Positions 2,964 through 32,336 of a stretch of DNA of 64,000 nucleotides are shown here, in pieces. A model generated the notes under the pieces. It was not told the origin of the DNA. It did not search any database and was given only the letters and a program-made list of their open reading frames with translations. The stretch lies in contig CACDKD010000002.1 of the NCBI GenBank assembly GCA_902553145.1, forward strand, positions 160,990 to 224,989, in the 5' to 3' direction. This stretch comes from an uncultured Gammaproteobacteria bacterium. Lineage in GTDB: Bacteria > Pseudomonadota > Gammaproteobacteria > Steroidobacterales > UBA11654. Positions within the stretch are counted from its first letter, which is position 1. Each line of letters starts with the position of its first letter. The position numbers were made by a program, and so were the translations under genes.

Positions 2964-4250
2964 TTGAGCGATGACATTCCGCTGGAATACCTTTTTGTAA
3001 TTCTAGCCATACTAATCTTACTATCTGCATTCTTCTCTGGAACGGAAACTGCACTCATGAGAGTGAATAAATACCGTGTAAGACATCTTGCAAAGAAGGG
3101 GGACAAGAGTGCAAAACTAGCCGAAAAACTTCTAAAGAAGCCAGATAAGCTAATTGCTTTCATTCTTCTTGGAACAAACTTGGTTAACTTCATTGCCGCA
3201 TCTCTTGTGGGGGTCGTATCTATGGAAATAGGTGGGCCAACAGGAGTTGTTGTTGGAACAATCTTATTAACTGCAGTGGTATTACTCTTTTGTGAATCAA
3301 TACCTAAAACGGTCGCGGCAATCTTTCCTGAAAAAATAGCTCTTCCGGCGAGCAGGATTTATCACCCGCTAGTTAAATTTACAAAACCTTTTCTAGGGGT
3401 TATCAATTTTTTCACCAATATGGTTCTTAAACTCCTGGGGTCAGGCCCAAATGATCAGGAAGAAAAAATATCAGTTGATGAACTCAAAACAATCATTACA
3501 GACGGACTTACTAAAACTGCTTTTGATAGACAAAACATCATGATGGGTGTTTTGGATCTGGGTAGTATGACCGTTGAAGACATAATGCTTCCCCATAATG
3601 AAGTGGTAGGAATTGATTTGAGCAAATCAGATGAAACAAACATAAGGGTAATTCAAAAAAACTTCCACTCCTCTTTGCCAGTTTATGAAGATGTTCTTGA
3701 CAACCTAAAAGGGGTGCTTGATCTAAATGAATTCCTGATGAATGTTGATCTTGATTCTTTTAGTAATGATTCAGTGATGCAACATATGAAAAAGCCATAT
3801 TTCATTCCAGAAACAACCTCATTGAGTCAGCAACTCGTTGAGTTTAAATCTAAAAAACAAAAAACAGCTTTCGCGGTGGATGAATATGGGAATATCCAAG
3901 GGCTCATAACGATAGAAGATATTTTTGAAGAAATTGTAGGAGATTATCTTGAAGGAACCCAGAAATTAAACCAAGAAATGAAGCCTAAGAAAGTAAATGA
4001 TTCCTATATTGTCAATGCGTCTTCTAATATCCGGGTTCTAAATAAAATGATGAATTGGGATATACCTATTGATGAAGCTAAAACAATCAATGGTGCCGTT
4101 CTTGAAAATCTTGGATATATTCCTAAAGAAGGAGCCGATTTCAGACTCGGTAATTATGTCATTGGAATTGTTTCAACCAAAGAAAATGCAGTTGAAACAG
4201 TTACGATTAAAAACTTAGATGAAGATTATGAGCTAAAAGTTGTTTCTTAG
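2964..4250 (+). CDS. CNNM/HlyC-CorC family membrane protein (DUF21 + CBS pair + CorC_HlyC domain)
   Basis: 428 aa. TTG start sits 9 nt after AAGGAG. The N-terminus LLSAFFSGTETALM is the DUF21 signature. A CBS region (VEDIMLPHNEV) and a C-terminal transporter-associated domain follow. It lies divergent from the rpsP operon, as E. coli yfjD does. Confidence 0.85.
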   Translation: MSDDIPLEYLFVILAILILLSAFFSGTETALMRVNKYRVRHLAKKGDKSAKLAEKLLKKPDKLIAFILLGTNLVNFIAASLVGVVSMEIGGPTGVVVGTILLTAVVLLFCESIPKTVAAIFPEKIALPASRIYHPLVKFTKPFLGVINFFTNMVLKLLGSGPNDQEEKISVDELKTIITDGLTKTAFDRQNIMMGVLDLGSMTVEDIMLPHNEVVGIDLSKSDETNIRVIQKNFHSSLPVYEDVLDNLKGVLDLNEFLMNVDLDSFSNDSVMQHMKKPYFIPETTSLSQQLVEFKSKKQKTAFAVDEYGNIQGLITIEDIFEEIVGDYLEGTQKLNQEMKPKKVNDSYIVNASSNIRVLNKMMNWDIPIDEAKTINGAVLENLGYIPKEGADFRLGNYVIGIVSTKENAVETVTIKNLDEDYELKVVS

Positions 4251-5635
4251 AATTGCTCATATTCGGGACTCCAGTTCTCAAACTTCGTATAACGCCCTAC
4301 CCACGTTAGATTGAATTTACCGATTGCCCCATTCCTTTGCTTGGCAACATTAATCTGTGCTATTCCTTTTTTGTCTGTTTCAGGATCATAGACCTCTTCA
4401 CGATATATGAATGCAATAAGATCAGCATCTTGCTCAATTGCACCTGACTCTCTTAGATCAGACATTTGTGGAACCTTATCAGTACGCTGTTCAACACTTC
4501 GGTTCAATTGAGAAAGAGCAATAATCGGGACATTTAACTCCCTAGCTAAAGCTTTTAGATTTCTTGATATCTCTGATATTTCAGTAGCTCTATTTTCTTT
4601 ATTTCCATGAACCTGCATAAGCTGGAGATAATCAATCAAAATAAGAGACAATCCTTTTTCTCTCTGAATTCTTCTTGCCCTTGCTCTCAGCTCAATGGGC
4701 GTAAGGGACGGCGCATCGTCAATATAAATTGGTGCATCTTTGATTTGCTGAATTGCACCATCGATCCTGTTCCAGTCTCTTTCTTCAAGCTTACCCGTCC
4801 TCATGGAATGTGAATTGACTCTCCCTAAAGATGAGATCATCCGTTGAGCAAGTGAGCTGGCTGACATTTCCATACTAAATACAGCGACAGGTTCTTTATC
4901 AGCGAGTGCTGCATGTTCAGCAATATTGAGTGCAAAAGCAGTTTTACCCATTGAGGGTCTACCAGCAATGATAATGAGTTCGCCCTTCTGCAAACCTGCA
5001 GTCAAGTTATCGAGTTCTCTAAAGCCTGATGAAACACCAGTCAATCCGCCACCGCCCTGTGATCTTTTATCTAATTCATCATAAGTTTCCTTCACAAGGT
5101 CGCTCATGTGTGCAAAAGTGCCTTTCTTTGTGCCACGTTCAGCGATCTCAAATATATATGACTCTGCAATATCTACTAGCTCAGTAGGTGTTCGTCCTTC
5201 GGGTTTATAAGCATTTTGAGATATATCATTACTGATCTGAATAAGCTCTCTTAGAAGTGCTTTTTCTCTGATTATTTTTGCATACTCAGTAACATTAGAG
5301 CTTCCTGCTGTCGTTTCAATGATTTCAGACAAGTATTCAATTCCTGATTCAGGCATGTCAGCATCATTCGAGTCAAGATAATCAGAAACAGTCAAAACAT
5401 CAGTAACTTTTGAGTCTTCTCTTAACTCTTGTATTGCTATAAATACTGCTTTATTTTCTGGGTGATAAAAATCACGGTCCGAGACTAGGTCAGCAATCTT
5501 GTCGTATGCTTCCCCATTAGGATCCAAGATAAGCCCGCCAATAAGGGCTGCTTCCGCCTCTGTAGAATGAGGTGGTAATGATATTTGTCCTAATGATTTA
5601 TTTGATCTATCGGTCTCTGCTGCAGATTTTGCCAT
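4247..5635 (-). CDS. dnaB: replicative DNA helicase DnaB
   Basis: 462 aa. Motifs: PPHS.EAE.A..G, Walker A GRPSMGKTAFALN, IDYLQLM, and SQLNR..E.R.DK.P..SDLRESG.IEQDAD. Confidence 0.97.
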   Translation of the reverse strand: MAKSAAETDRSNKSLGQISLPPHSTEAEAALIGGLILDPNGEAYDKIADLVSDRDFYHPENKAVFIAIQELREDSKVTDVLTVSDYLDSNDADMPESGIEYLSEIIETTAGSSNVTEYAKIIREKALLRELIQISNDISQNAYKPEGRTPTELVDIAESYIFEIAERGTKKGTFAHMSDLVKETYDELDKRSQGGGGLTGVSSGFRELDNLTAGLQKGELIIIAGRPSMGKTAFALNIAEHAALADKEPVAVFSMEMSASSLAQRMISSLGRVNSHSMRTGKLEERDWNRIDGAIQQIKDAPIYIDDAPSLTPIELRARARRIQREKGLSLILIDYLQLMQVHGNKENRATEISEISRNLKALARELNVPIIALSQLNRSVEQRTDKVPQMSDLRESGAIEQDADLIAFIYREEVYDPETDKKGIAQINVAKQRNGAIGKFNLTWVGRYTKFENWSPEYEQF

Positions 5636-29359: not shown

Positions 29360-29388
29360 TTGAATGTTCTCTTTTTGTTCTCTATTAT
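29360..29388 (+). promoter_or_regulatory. putative lexA promoter (-35 TTGAAT, 17-nt spacer, -10 TATTAT) with an embedded GTTC-N7-GTTC direct repeat (candidate LexA operator)
   Basis: TTGAAT 29360-29365 and TATTAT 29383-29388. TGTTCTCT occurs twice (29365-29372 and 29376-29383) with an 11-bp period, filling the spacer. The element lies 27 nt upstream of ATG 29416. Confidence 0.5.
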
Positions 29389-29415: not shown

Positions 29416-30024
29416 ATGTTAACTCCAAGCGAAACCAAAACCTTAAAATTCATTCAAAAGTACTGCATTGAGAAGGGCTGCTCGCCTACCCTTACAGAAA
29501 TTGCCGATGGAATTGGTATTAAATCCAGGGGCGTTGTGCATCGATATATCAAGTCTCTTGAGTCCAAAAAATTACTCAGCGTAGCATCCAATAGAAAAAG
29601 AGGTATATGCCTCAATCTGGAAGCCTATGAAAATCAGTCCATCGCTCCCATTATTCCGCTGTTGGGGCGTATAGCAGCCGGGCAACCAATCGAAGCAATT
29701 GAGGATAGACATGAAATCAACCTTGCGGACTTTATCATGGATCCCGATCGATTTGCCTTACAGGTAACTGGTGAGTCAATGATGGATGCTGGCATACTTG
29801 ATGGGGACACGGTCATCATTAAGCATCAAAACACCGCAAACAATGGCGATATTGTTGTTGCCCTTATCGATGGTCTTGAGGCAACGCTGAAGCGCTTTAA
29901 AAGACTTCCCAAAGGAATGATACTTTTAATTCCAGAAAATAAATCCATGGAAGCAATTGCATATGAGGCTGAGCGTATTCAGATACAAGGAGTAGTTGTT
30001 GGCCAACTTAGAAGCTACCAATAA
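29416..30024 (+). CDS. lexA: SOS repressor LexA
   Basis: wHTH N-domain (MLTPSETKTLKFIQKY...PTLTEIADGIGIKSRGVVHRYIKSLE), cleavage site GRIAAGQPI, Ser VTGESMMDAGI and Lys ATLKRF. The track start is TTG 29404. ATG 29416 aligns better with LexA N-termini. Confidence 0.93.
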   Translation: MLTPSETKTLKFIQKYCIEKGCSPTLTEIADGIGIKSRGVVHRYIKSLESKKLLSVASNRKRGICLNLEAYENQSIAPIIPLLGRIAAGQPIEAIEDRHEINLADFIMDPDRFALQVTGESMMDAGILDGDTVIIKHQNTANNGDIVVALIDGLEATLKRFKRLPKGMILLIPENKSMEAIAYEAERIQIQGVVVGQLRSYQ

Positions 30025-31246
30025 AGATTCTTGGCCAAGAATCATCGCTCTGGTTGATATGAACTCTTTTTTTGCATCCATCGAGCAAATGGATTATCCG
30101 GAGTTGTATGGAAGACCCGTTGGCGTTACAAATGGTCTACAAGGGACTTGCATCATCACCTGCTCTTATGAGGCTCGTTCTTGGGGCATCAAAACGGGCA
30201 TGCGGTTAAAAGAAGCTAGAAAATTATGTCCAGACATCATTCAAAGGCCCTCCAGACCCAAAAGATATGCGCAAATTTCCACTCGTATCATGTCTGCGCT
30301 CAAGGCCGTTACTCCCGATATTGAAGTCTTCTCTGTTGATGAGGCATTCTTAGACCTAACCCACTGCAAGAAGATTATTCATTCACCAGAGCAAATAGCA
30401 AAAAGAATTCAAGATCTTGTATGCAACGTATCAGGAATATCTTGTTCGGTTGGTATAAGCGGAGATAAAACGACTGCAAAATATGCTGCCAAACAAGACA
30501 AGCCTTATGGGATCACAATCATCCCTCCTCTTGATGCTGAGTCTAGATTGAAGAATGTTCCAGTAGATCAATTGTGCGGTATTGGAAAAGGCATAAAAAG
30601 ATTTCTCAATTCGCATGGAGTATATAAATGTGGCGATATGAAAAACATTCCAATCAGTGTTCTTGGTAAGCACTTTGGGCATCCAGGTCGAAGAATTTGG
30701 CTGATGGCTCAAGGCAAGGATCCTGAACAAATACAGACCACTGTCGCTCCGCCAAAATCAATAGGTCATGGAAAAGTTATGCCTCCAGATACTCGTGATA
30801 AAAGAGTCATCCTTACTTACTTACAGCACATGAGTGAAAAAGTGGGTGCACGACTTAGAAAACACGACTTTAAATCTTCGGCATTCTTCATTGGATTAAA
30901 ATCTAAAAACGGTTGGATAGGATCAAAACTAAAACTTGCCTACTCTATTGATGATGGCCTGAAGATCATGCAGCTCGGGGAAAATATGATTAGAAGCAGA
31001 TGGCATGGAGAAGGCATTCATCAGATACAAGTTACTGCTCTTAATCCACAACAATCAAACCAGCAAATTGATTTCCTGGAACAAGGCGAACATGCGAATA
31101 TTGCTGTTAAAAATAGAGTCATAGATTCAATCAATGAGAAATATGGCAACCTAACGATCGCACCCAGTAACTTAATGCATAGGTCAAGCATGCCTGATGT
31201 AATTGCACCGGCTTGGAAACCATCCGGCCATAGACAAACAATATAA
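29996..31246 (+). CDS. dinB: Y-family DNA polymerase (Pol IV / UmuC-like)
   Basis: 416 aa. IIALVDMNSFFASIE, TCSYEARSWGIKTGM, catalytic SVDEAFLDLT, and GISGDKTTAKYAAK. The only in-frame start upstream of the catalytic Asp is TTG 29996/29999, inside the lexA 3' end. Subfamily (DinB versus UmuC) is uncertain. Confidence 0.85.
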   Translation: MLANLEATNKDSWPRIIALVDMNSFFASIEQMDYPELYGRPVGVTNGLQGTCIITCSYEARSWGIKTGMRLKEARKLCPDIIQRPSRPKRYAQISTRIMSALKAVTPDIEVFSVDEAFLDLTHCKKIIHSPEQIAKRIQDLVCNVSGISCSVGISGDKTTAKYAAKQDKPYGITIIPPLDAESRLKNVPVDQLCGIGKGIKRFLNSHGVYKCGDMKNIPISVLGKHFGHPGRRIWLMAQGKDPEQIQTTVAPPKSIGHGKVMPPDTRDKRVILTYLQHMSEKVGARLRKHDFKSSAFFIGLKSKNGWIGSKLKLAYSIDDGLKIMQLGENMIRSRWHGEGIHQIQVTALNPQQSNQQIDFLEQGEHANIAVKNRVIDSINEKYGNLTIAPSNLMHRSSMPDVIAPAWKPSGHRQTI

Positions 31247-31250
31247 CGAC

Positions 31251-31661
31251 ATGTGTGGCGGAGCTTCATATACGCATAACGGTGATCACATGAGGGTATA
31301 TTTCCCAAATCCAAAAGCAAAACTCCCTGTCATCACGAAAGAAAGTGATACGAAATTAATACTCTGGGGAAGGCGTAAAGGACAATCGGGAAAACTTCCA
31401 TTAGGAGGATGGGCAAGATTAGATTCGATTCATGCTGGAATATGGGACAGATGGTTTCCAAAACCTGTAAAAATACCCGTATTGAGCTTTATGGAAAAAG
31501 ATCATGAGGGAAAAAGTCATTGGTTTGATTTAGTTAAAGGGCAGTGGATACAAGGTTTAATAGCAGTAGAAAAACAAGAACAGAGACTATACGTAGTAAC
31601 AATTGAACCGGAGCTTGAACACAGCATTCATGATCGATGGCCTAGGGTTATGAGTGGTTAG
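31251..31661 (+). CDS. short SRAP (SOS response-associated peptidase, YedK/DUF159)-like protein
   Basis: Starts MCGG (Cys2 nucleophile position). LILWG, GWARLDS (compare INARVET), FME (compare FEW) and IHDRWPRV (compare IHDRRPLV) are collinear with E. coli YedK. It is only 136 aa. The track ORF starts at 31203 inside the polymerase gene. Confidence 0.6.
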   Translation: MCGGASYTHNGDHMRVYFPNPKAKLPVITKESDTKLILWGRRKGQSGKLPLGGWARLDSIHAGIWDRWFPKPVKIPVLSFMEKDHEGKSHWFDLVKGQWIQGLIAVEKQEQRLYVVTIEPELEHSIHDRWPRVMSG

Positions 31662-31667
31662 AGCGAG

Positions 31668-32336
31668 TTAATCTCGCTTTCGGTTTTGCCTTCTCCAATC
31701 TTCAGGATCTAAAAAATCACCGCTCCAAATACCTGCTCTATTAACCATGGCTTCTATCATCTCTTCTTCGTATCGAGTCGAATAGCGAATATAAGCAACT
31801 GCCATTCCGGTTCTGACCATTTCAGATTGCAAGTCGACACCGTTTGCATAGCAGATACTCAGCGTTCTTCCATATTTATCCTCGCCTTCATCTGTGCATT
31901 CAACTTCATTTTTTCCAATGAGCTTCTTTAAAGCAGCGGTAGCCTTCTTTCCACAAGCCCAAATTTTTCCATTGGGTCTTTCGCAGTACTGAGTCAATCC
32001 ATAGTAATAGGATTCAGGAGCATCAATGCCACTGAATCTGATCTTAGTGTTGCCGATGGTAATGGTATCTCCATCAACAACGGTGGCTTTTCCTTTGATA
32101 TAGATCTTATCTTTTCTCTCTTTTTGATTCGCTCGTTCATCTCCCAGAGTATCTTCACGATAGTCCTCTACAAGATTCATAGGTATCTCGTCCGATTGAA
32201 TTGGTGAGTCAGTCATCGGGATATCAAATGGATCCGGCTCATCATCAATTTCCTGAGCGATGATGTTAAATGCAAAGAATGAGATAACGACTAGGAAATA
32301 CATTACTGGTTTGCTTATTTTCATAGATCTGGTCAA
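31668..32336 (-). CDS. secreted staphylococcal-nuclease-like (SNase/thermonuclease) protein
   Basis: Signal or TM segment at the N-terminus. Then VVDGDTI......IR..GIDAPE and D.YGR....C......L...MV..G.A. Confidence 0.8.
   Translation of the reverse strand: MTRSMKISKPVMYFLVVISFFAFNIIAQEIDDEPDPFDIPMTDSPIQSDEIPMNLVEDYREDTLGDERANQKERKDKIYIKGKATVVDGDTITIGNTKIRFSGIDAPESYYYGLTQYCERPNGKIWACGKKATAALKKLIGKNEVECTDEGEDKYGRTLSICYANGVDLQSEMVRTGMAVAYIRYSTRYEEEMIEAMVNRAGIWSGDFLDPEDWRRQNRKRD

Follow-up and report, generated by a model that had tools for sequence, protein, structure and literature searches.

A conserved lexA, Y-family polymerase and mini-SRAP cassette in Gammaproteobacteria with a probable role in DNA damage tolerance

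In a 64,000-nt stretch of DNA from an uncultured gammaproteobacterium (GTDB lineage Steroidobacterales, UBA11654; contig CACDKD010000002.1, positions 160,990–224,989 of the forward strand; hereafter the window, with a G+C content of 38%), lexA, a gene for a Y-family DNA polymerase and a 136-aa open reading frame (ORF) form a single unit on the plus strand. lexA (29416–30024; ATG start, TAA stop at 30022–30024) encodes 202 aa with a winged helix–turn–helix and an S24 autopeptidase domain; the polymerase gene (29999–31246; TAA at 31244–31246) encodes 415 aa from TTG 29999, or 416 aa from TTG 29996; and the third gene (31251–31661) encodes a 136-aa protein beginning MCGG, which we designate mini-SRAP from its AlphaFold2 fold and its retained Cys2 and IHDRWP motif. 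A sequence-only reading had described these genes as a tricistron of lexA, polymerase and SRAP with umuDC-like geometry, and all the coordinates that it gave were confirmed. We conclude that the unit is a real, widely conserved three-gene DNA-damage operon, and consider it likely that this is a self-contained damage-tolerance operon of the SOS type in which the polymerase and mini-SRAP act together.

When one genome per species was scanned, 259 genomes proved to contain relatives of mini-SRAP, and the best 80 were surveyed as loci. Almost all of these 80 are gammaproteobacterial metagenome-assembled genomes (MAGs), assigned to Woeseiaceae-like lineages, Arenicellales, Ectothiorhodospiraceae, Thioalkalispiraceae, Chromatiales and others, and the window itself is ~98% identical to the marine MAGs UBA11654 and MED641 and 96% identical to SP335. 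The polymerase lies directly upstream of mini-SRAP in essentially every surveyed locus with enough flank, the exceptions being L079, which has no polymerase, and L057, where the order is lexA, mini-SRAP, polymerase; lexA is adjacent in ~40%. Conservation of the gene order, a point raised in the sequence-only reading, was found for the polymerase–mini-SRAP pair in nearly all loci and for lexA in the smaller share. At most 10 nt separate the polymerase stop from the mini-SRAP ATG in 57 of 75 loci, 16 of these have a 1-nt overlap (TAATG or TGATG), and the larger gaps contain repeats or an inserted ORF. Even in L091, where mini-SRAP is only 39% identical and the order is reversed, the gene overlaps by 7 nt that of a same-clade polymerase (55% identical), without lexA but with a direct-repeat operator 46 nt upstream. 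Flanking genes vary between lineages and, because many species-level genomes with unlike flanks share the arrangement, it goes beyond chance. The cassette was also found on a megaplasmid. In a cultured example, Methylophaga thalassica IOM01 plasmid NZ_CP143310.1, lexA, a gene annotated 'DNA polymerase IV' and a hypothetical gene follow one another with the same 26-nt overlap of the first two, behind an operator of the form ATTCTC-N5-ATTCTC.

Several loci depart from this compact layout. In L042, L045 and L064 an extra small ORF lies between polymerase and mini-SRAP (755–952 nt), with motifs such as RFWNNEV that are typical of DUF559 or very-short-patch-endonuclease-like proteins, and has G+C-rich palindromic repeats on either side; similar repeats accompany the shorter insertions of L047 and L078. 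In the Arenicellales-like loci L027, L033, L049, L075 and L076 the two genes are separated by a 73–121-nt spacer of short inverted or tandem repeats, with units such as GGAACTTGGAAC and AAACGTAAAACG, which could form a long hairpin and may be a regulatory or repetitive extragenic palindromic (REP)-like element that uncouples them. The polymerase of the Solemya pervernicosa gill symbiont (L005, 2399–3725) is split into calls of 328 and 129 aa while lexA and mini-SRAP are intact, which suggests a frameshift, whether in a pseudogene or through an assembly error. Three short contigs (L037, L069 and L080) from MAGs labelled Acidimicrobiia, Anaerolineae and Geoglobus, an archaeon, carry a gammaproteobacterial-type cassette at ~66–68% identity and most likely reflect binning contamination rather than transfer.

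At the first junction in the window, the 3′ end of lexA and the polymerase gene overlap by 26 or 29 nt, depending on which TTG serves as start. The polymerase frame opens after an in-frame TAG (29993–29995), TTG 29996 and TTG 29999 come first, and no ATG, GTG or TTG occurs between 30002 and 30031; because Trp12 (30032–30034) is invariant in 27 homologues, the two TTGs are the only usable starts, as the sequence-only reading had held. A ribosome-binding site that it had not mentioned, AAGGAG (29987–29992), lies inside the 3′ coding sequence of lexA and ends 6 nt before TTG 29999. Among the 13 closest genomes the second TTG is kept in all 13 and the upstream site reads AAGGAG in 11 and AGGGAG in two, a conservation confounded by the fact that the same bases encode the LexA C-terminus. 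The Woeseiaceae-like clade keeps the TTG start within lexA, and in Arenicellales the polymerase ATG overlaps the lexA stop by 1 nt. A frameshift fusion of LexA and polymerase was rejected, given the in-frame TAG before the TTGs and the separate genes of other clades. At the second junction the ATG of mini-SRAP (31251) follows the polymerase stop after 4 nt, with no Shine–Dalgarno-like sequence before it, again in agreement with the first description; we take it, rather than the upstream TTG 31203, as the start because M1–C2 is conserved in the family. The polymerase would be translated from a TTG within the lexA 3′ end, behind AAGGAG and, since mini-SRAP then follows after a 4-nt gap with no ribosome-binding site of its own, the two proteins are probably translationally coupled and made in a roughly fixed ratio.

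Upstream of lexA, a promoter scan identified a sigma-70-like promoter (29360–29388, plus strand) with −35 and −10 elements TTGAAT (29360–29365) and TATTAT (29383–29388), the 17-nt spacer of which is spanned exactly by a putative LexA operator, GTTCTCTTTTTGTTCTC (29366–29382), a conserved direct repeat GTTCTC-N5-GTTCTC. The same layout (TTGA.. / box / TA...T) is found upstream of lexA in L001, L005 and L006. Most lexA-first loci have a direct repeat GTWCTC-N5-GTWCTC ahead of lexA, often with a second, inverted copy closer to the start codon; the majority of polymerase-first loci have a canonical CTGTATATAATTACAG box (CTGT-N8-ACAG), and a minority have the direct repeat despite the lack of an adjacent lexA. 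In the 806 kb of sequence scanned, the direct-repeat motif was confined to cassette promoters. Within the window, a second GTTC-N7-GTTC (48928) and the sole CTGT-N8-ACAG (18556) were dismissed as chance matches because both lie inside ORFs. The operator is unlike the motif of Pseudomonas putida LexA2. It resembles the alphaproteobacterial LexA motif GTTC-N7-GTTC, and LexA motifs are known to diverge once lexA has been duplicated (PMC8565304). The cassette is modular: its own LexA lineage accompanies it in ~40% of the surveyed genomes, and in most of the others the polymerase promoter has been rewired to the host CTGT-N8-ACAG box.

LexA of the window scores 160.6 bits against the equivalog model TIGR00498 (cut-off 110.95), has LexA_DNA_bind (PF01726, 31 bits) and Peptidase_S24 (PF00717, 105.9 bits) domains and is 33% identical to Escherichia coli LexA over its full length, the Ala-Gly site in GRIAAGQP, the Ser in GESM and the Lys in LKRF aligning with A84–G85, S119 and K156 of the latter. 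LexA would bind the direct-repeat operator and repress its own operon, with one promoter driving lexA, polymerase and mini-SRAP, until RecA on single-stranded DNA triggered its self-cleavage at Ala-Gly and induced all three genes. We accordingly regard the cassette as probably autoregulated and damage-inducible. Of the compact, translationally coupled cassette proposed in the sequence-only reading, what stands is the three-gene unit, its conserved junctions of the coupling type and a promoter with a LexA-type operator, with coupling itself put forward as the probable consequence.

The polymerase has IMS palm and fingers (PF00817, IMS, E = 1.1e-44), thumb (PF21999, IMS_HHH_1) and little finger (PF11799, IMS_C), and its predicted model has a canonical core. 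The catalytic residues D20 and D114–E115 are invariant, the motifs VDMNSFFASIE and SVDEAF are present and intact as reported earlier, and FF occupies the steric-gate position. From its N-terminus and size the enzyme had been taken to be closer to UmuC than to DinB, a view that the scores do not support: NCBIfam Pol IV models give 190–245 bits (the best 244.7 against a cut-off of 381; PRK02406, 227 against 256), whereas the UmuC model PRK03609 gives 113 bits (cut-off 431) and matches the N-terminal half only; similarly, BLAST gives 131 bits to E. coli DinB and 114 to UmuC. BLAST scores of 104–147 bits were obtained with UvrX, YqjH-group, Bacteroidetes PolY2, acPolY2-like and Planctomycete UmuC-like references, identities to the Y-family references (DinB, UmuC and others) are 24–33%, and the best solved relative is 7yll, 'DNA polymerase IV' (180 bits). 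In a neighbour-joining tree, in which deeper nodes were unresolved, the family formed a separate clade (bootstrap 86) outside both the group of UmuC with Planctomycete UmuC-like proteins (89) and that of DinB with Bacteroidetes PolY2 (71). E. coli-type DinB was therefore rejected, for the scores below cut-off, the separate clade and a 55-residue extension past a clamp-like motif at which Pol IV (~350 aa) ends; UmuC, for its sub-cut-off score, the position outside the UmuC clade and the lack of umuD in the window; and ImuB, for the intact catalytic residues, a score of just 59 bits to Mycobacterium tuberculosis ImuB2 and the lack of imuA or dnaE2 neighbours. Placed among the DinB, UmuC and ImuB clades, the polymerase thus falls in none, and forms instead a Y-family clade of its own, neither UmuC nor E. 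coli-type DinB.

This placement also bears on the proposal that the cleaved S24 domain of LexA doubles as a UmuD′-like accessory of a UmuC-like polymerase, which would explain the umuDC-like overlap. As in umuDC, a gene for an S24 protein overlaps the polymerase start; the S24 domain reaches 63 bits against the UmuD model (cut-off 110) and shares 36% identity with UmuD over 89 residues; and the 64-kb window has no umuD, as had been noted, nor any second lexA, other S24 protein, recA, other Y-family polymerase or canonical SRAP gene. Against these points, the protein exceeds the cut-off of the LexA equivalog model and possesses both a DNA-binding domain and an operator of its own, the polymerase falls outside the UmuC clade, and more than half of the polymerase–mini-SRAP cassettes on contigs that reach far enough upstream have no adjacent lexA and use a host LexA box. 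Moreover, on Methylobacter sp. YRD-M1 plasmid NZ_CP091426.1 (L099, 3436–4627) a LexA 41% identical to that of the window is encoded divergently from a classical umuD–umuC, with a GTTCTCTTTTTGTTCTA operator in the intergenic segment, so that a related LexA with the same operator coexists there with a separate umuD. This LexA and operator lineage therefore controls a different translesion-synthesis cassette too and, given the Methylophaga and Methylobacter plasmids, appears to be a repressor of mobile translesion-synthesis cassettes that does not take over from UmuD where the polymerase is of the UmuC type. We regard a UmuD-like role for LexA as very improbable. What survives of the umuDC analogy is a changed form of it, with the downstream mini-SRAP, a likelier small partner of the polymerase than the LexA S24 domain, as the probable small subunit.

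The likeness to UmuC does hold for the C-terminal extension of the polymerase, which comprises three elements. The first is a beta-clamp-binding-like motif, QIDFL (residues 356–360; 31064–31078), in which Q356 is invariant and position 360 nearly so, and which reads QLELF in homologues; motifs of this type have been described (PMC6511836; PMC12926913), and the one here is a putative clamp-binding site. The second is a RecA-NT-like segment (residues ~366–392; 31094–31174) with a predicted helix at 364–382 followed by GNLTIAPSNL. It matches positions 5–23 of DUF4113 below threshold (E = 0.058), and 19 of 27 family members match the N-terminal segment of that domain at E ≤ 1 (best E = 0.0069); this part of DUF4113 corresponds to the RecA-NT-like motif of PMC6511836. 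The third is a C-terminal tail, RSSMPDVIAPAWKPSGHRQTI (residues 395–415; 31181–31243), the consensus of which, RSxMPxVIAPAWKPxGHRQTI, forms the longest stretch of invariant or nearly invariant columns in the polymerase alignment. Residues 381–415 have a predicted local distance difference test (pLDDT) score below 50 and are predicted to be disordered, and a tail that is invariant yet predicted to be disordered typically marks a peptide that becomes folded on binding a partner, making it a candidate partner-binding peptide. In UmuC and YqjW, small subunits bind to conserved C-terminal tails, and the RecA-NT motif is a widespread one (PMC6511836).

Sequence models did not identify the third protein: it had no match in Pfam even at E = 10, none in NCBIfam or PHROGs, and no SRAP match among PDB sequences, by phmmer or profile hmmsearch. 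Its AlphaFold2 model (pLDDT 90.4, predicted template modelling score 0.84) is mostly beta, and the five best Foldseek matches in the PDB are all SRAP structures, namely YedK (2icu, 6kbu, 6nuh, 6kcq) and the YedK-like BB2244 (2bdv), with probability 1.00, query TM-scores of 0.59–0.67 and E-values of 1e-3 to 1e-2, the sixth match having E = 0.7. The earlier assignment to SRAP is thus supported by fold but not by Pfam, NCBIfam or PDB sequence models, and the fold points to a truncated protein, 136 aa against ~220, in which YedK residues ~6–34 and the C-terminal helical third are missing. By motif inspection, MCG, WG, PL..AR, F.E and IHDRxP occur in the YedK order. Hhalign aligned the segment VVT...IHDRWPR with YedK 143–173, which holds the catalytic His160, with IHDRWP opposite DIHDRRP of YedK, at a low probability (given below) and with a shallow YedK alignment, the homologue search having yielded only sequences at least 77% identical. 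We infer that C2, E82 (in FMEKD) and H127 correspond to YedK C2, E105 (in GWFEW) and H160, with W54 in place of N75. The roles of Cys2, Glu105 and His160 in YedK are established, and N75A is mildly defective (PMC9436759).

More than 650 homologue clusters at 90% identity, typically 65–70% identical to mini-SRAP and all annotated 'hypothetical protein', were found, and 557 clusters at 50% identity match its profile. Among 41 close sequences M1, C2, G4, W39–G40–R41–R42, G52–G53–W54–A55–R56, F80–M81, D84, H127, R129, W130 and P131 are invariant and E82 is kept in at least 90%. Across 66 representatives of the wider family, Cys2 is retained in 59, Glu82 in 42 and His127 in 27. Mini-SRAP could conceivably be a non-catalytic, UmuD′-like 'manager' that gates or inhibits the polymerase, its SRAP fold serving only as a platform on which protein or single-stranded DNA is bound. 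This would account for the poor conservation of His127 and Glu82 in the wider family and for proteins of 500–610 aa that carry the domain internally without an N-terminal Cys, and SRAP-like proteins are treated as putative regulatory subunits in PMC12926913; it is hard to reconcile with the near-complete retention of the catalytic set in close relatives and with Cys2 in nearly all of the distant ones, difficult to explain without N-terminal chemistry, and we consider it quite unlikely.

In the 500–610-aa proteins (P0274, P0294, P0306, P0370, P0374, P0383 and P0249), multi-pass membrane and coiled-coil regions make up the N-terminal half; a winged-helix-like segment comes next, and the mini-SRAP-like domain lies at the C-terminus. 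Most of them have the 'Cys2' position within the chain, where it is often occupied by another residue. They may represent non-catalytic reuse of the fold in some other, perhaps mobile-element, system; being membrane and coiled-coil proteins without any Pfam match, they were rejected as fusions of polymerase and mini-SRAP.

Solo mini-SRAP genes, with no polymerase, occur on conjugative plasmids and megaplasmids: in L096 (Pseudomonas sp. XWY-1 pXWY, 5019–5429), P. putida NZ_CP047312.1, L097 (a Nitrosomonas plasmid, 4977–5381) and L098 (a Methylophaga pinxianii plasmid, 3998–4411). They adjoin Xre, antitoxin or toxin–antitoxin genes or precede a hypothetical-ssb block, which hints at protection of incoming single-stranded plasmid DNA.

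Since such genes exist, mini-SRAP can act without a polymerase of the type found in the window, and the two proteins might be co-regulated but independent, mini-SRAP being a short YedK-like shield of abasic sites that forms no complex and the tight junctions reflecting operon economy. The SRAP fold with Cys2, Glu and His kept fits this alternative, as do the solo genes on plasmids and in L092; furthermore, the association of SRAP with SOS and translesion operons, mentioned in the sequence-only reading, is indeed on record, canonical SRAP genes occurring in operons with DinB and LexA without evidence of a complex (PMC3765255). Independence does not, however, readily explain why near-obligate adjacency persists through the inverted order and 39% identity of L091, or why the polymerase has an invariant but disordered C-tail, which needs a ligand; homologous SRAP-like proteins are, moreover, predicted with high confidence to bind polymerases (PMC12926913). 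We consider independent action rather unlikely.

Our preferred reading, joint action of polymerase and mini-SRAP, would proceed as follows. Once the operon is induced, the beta clamp, through QIDFL, and RecA, through the RecA-NT-like helix, would recruit the polymerase, whose invariant disordered tail would dock mini-SRAP. With Met1 removed, Cys2, together with E82 and H127, would engage abasic or other aldehydic lesions in single-stranded DNA in the manner of YedK, and the pair would link lesion capture to translesion synthesis, by analogy with Pol V-type mutasomes, whose polymerase is modulated by small subunits. For a complex of polymerase and mini-SRAP the evidence is indirect, namely the strict adjacency of their genes and the invariant disordered tail.

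Several points weigh against this reading. The RecA-NT match is below threshold. The Foldseek E-values reach only ~1e-3, hhalign against YedK or YedK alignments gives a probability of 1.5–4.6% with an alignment confined to the VVT..IHDRxP segment, Glu and His were assigned from motif alignment rather than superposition, and YedK Asn75 aligns with Trp54. Across the wider family His127 and Glu82 are poorly kept, and its conserved function may be something other than catalysis. Mini-SRAP is also encoded alone, on plasmids and in at least one genome (L092). The terminator after mini-SRAP is weak, and co-transcription, an interaction of LexA with the direct repeat and coupled translation are inferred.

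The unit is bounded on both sides by opposite-strand housekeeping genes, with FabB, FabA, a histidine-phosphatase-like gene and a small membrane ORF upstream and a convergent staphylococcal nuclease (SNase) homologue and an SDR gene downstream, all on the minus strand. The stops of mini-SRAP and of the secreted-type SNase homologue (31668–32336) are 6 nt apart (31662–31667). A tentative terminator-like hairpin (31660–31687, plus strand), with an 8-bp stem and a UUAAU loop followed by CGGUUUUG, spans this junction and overlaps the 3′ end of the SNase gene; its fold energy of −12.3 kcal/mol is not significant (z = −1.6), and it may be a terminator shared by the two genes.

SRAP proteins such as YedK and HMCES protect abasic sites on single DNA strands and are believed to hold mutagenic translesion synthesis in check, and how lesions are handed over from SRAP to polymerases is debated. 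In hundreds of species the cassette ties a minimal SRAP-fold protein genetically to one polymerase clade with an invariant, predicted-disordered tail, and the pair offers a compact two-protein system in which to test SRAP–polymerase coupling, with the cultured Methylophaga plasmid carrier as a tractable host. More speculatively, mini-SRAP could be the obligate small subunit of an unrecognised gammaproteobacterial translesion complex of PolY, mini-SRAP, RecA and beta clamp, in which the C-tail tethers the Cys2 abasic cross-linker and for which the cassette brings its own LexA and operator or rewires to those of the host. We put this forward as a tentative possibility; if true, lesion capture and bypass would be physically coupled, the very handover debated for HMCES and YedK. 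A name could also be given to over 650 database clusters that are at present annotated 'hypothetical protein', and the occurrence of an own LexA with a direct repeat versus the host CTGT-N8-ACAG box provides a clean natural example of SOS rewiring.

Among known systems, the lexA2–imuA–imuB–dnaE2 cassette and the Geobacter lexA–imuB-C–polY operon (PMC6511836) resemble the cassette of the window as mutagenesis or translesion-synthesis units that carry their own lexA, with an operator unlike the host CTGT-N8-ACAG, and that occur patchily and on mobile DNA; the cassette of the window has an active PolY and mini-SRAP in place of ImuA, ImuB and DnaE2 or of ImuB-C. With E. coli umuDC the cassette shares a LexA-regulated small gene and a Y-family polymerase gene with overlapping ends, and a polymerase with a C-terminal extension, a RecA-binding-type motif and a conserved tail (PMC6511836); it differs in that its upstream S24 protein is a full LexA, its polymerase lies outside the UmuC clade and its candidate small subunit is encoded downstream and has an SRAP rather than an S24 fold. 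Operons of SRAP (DUF159/PF02586) and DinB, some with LexA, have already been reported (Aravind et al., 2013, PMC3765255) and similarly bring together LexA, a Pol IV-like polymerase and an SRAP-fold protein in an SOS context. Mini-SRAP shares with YedK and HMCES the N-terminal Cys2 and the HDRxP histidine motif, along with the fold match to YedK. Canonical SRAP proteins, however, are 220–260 aa long and detectable with PF02586, whereas mini-SRAP, at 136 aa, is missed by Pfam and NCBIfam and, compared with YedK, lacks two segments and has Trp in place of Asn75.

A further parallel is the UmuC–SRAP-like–RecA mutasome predicted in Planctomycetes in February 2026 (NAR 2026, PMC12926913; AlphaFold interface predicted TM-score ~0.85), all five examples of which are from Planctomycetes and in which SRAP-like proteins are treated as putative regulatory subunits. 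The mini-SRAP profile aligns with the Planctomycete SRAP-like protein QDU13703 at an hhalign probability of 95.7% (E = 8.6e-9, 90 aligned columns), which indicates homology between mini-SRAP and the Planctomycete subunits. Both systems combine a Y-family polymerase that has a clamp motif, a RecA-NT-type motif and a C-terminal tail with a small SRAP-related protein (137–156 aa) initiated by MC. On the other hand, the window polymerase does not belong to the UmuC-like group, being 25% identical (123 bits) to QDU57893 and no closer to it than to E. coli DinB or UmuC; its mini-SRAP is shorter and without the N-terminal helical insert; and the cassette is gammaproteobacterial and often includes its own lexA. 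Thus, because its polymerase clade and host range differ and its own LexA is often included, the cassette of the window is related to the operons described so far but distinct from them.

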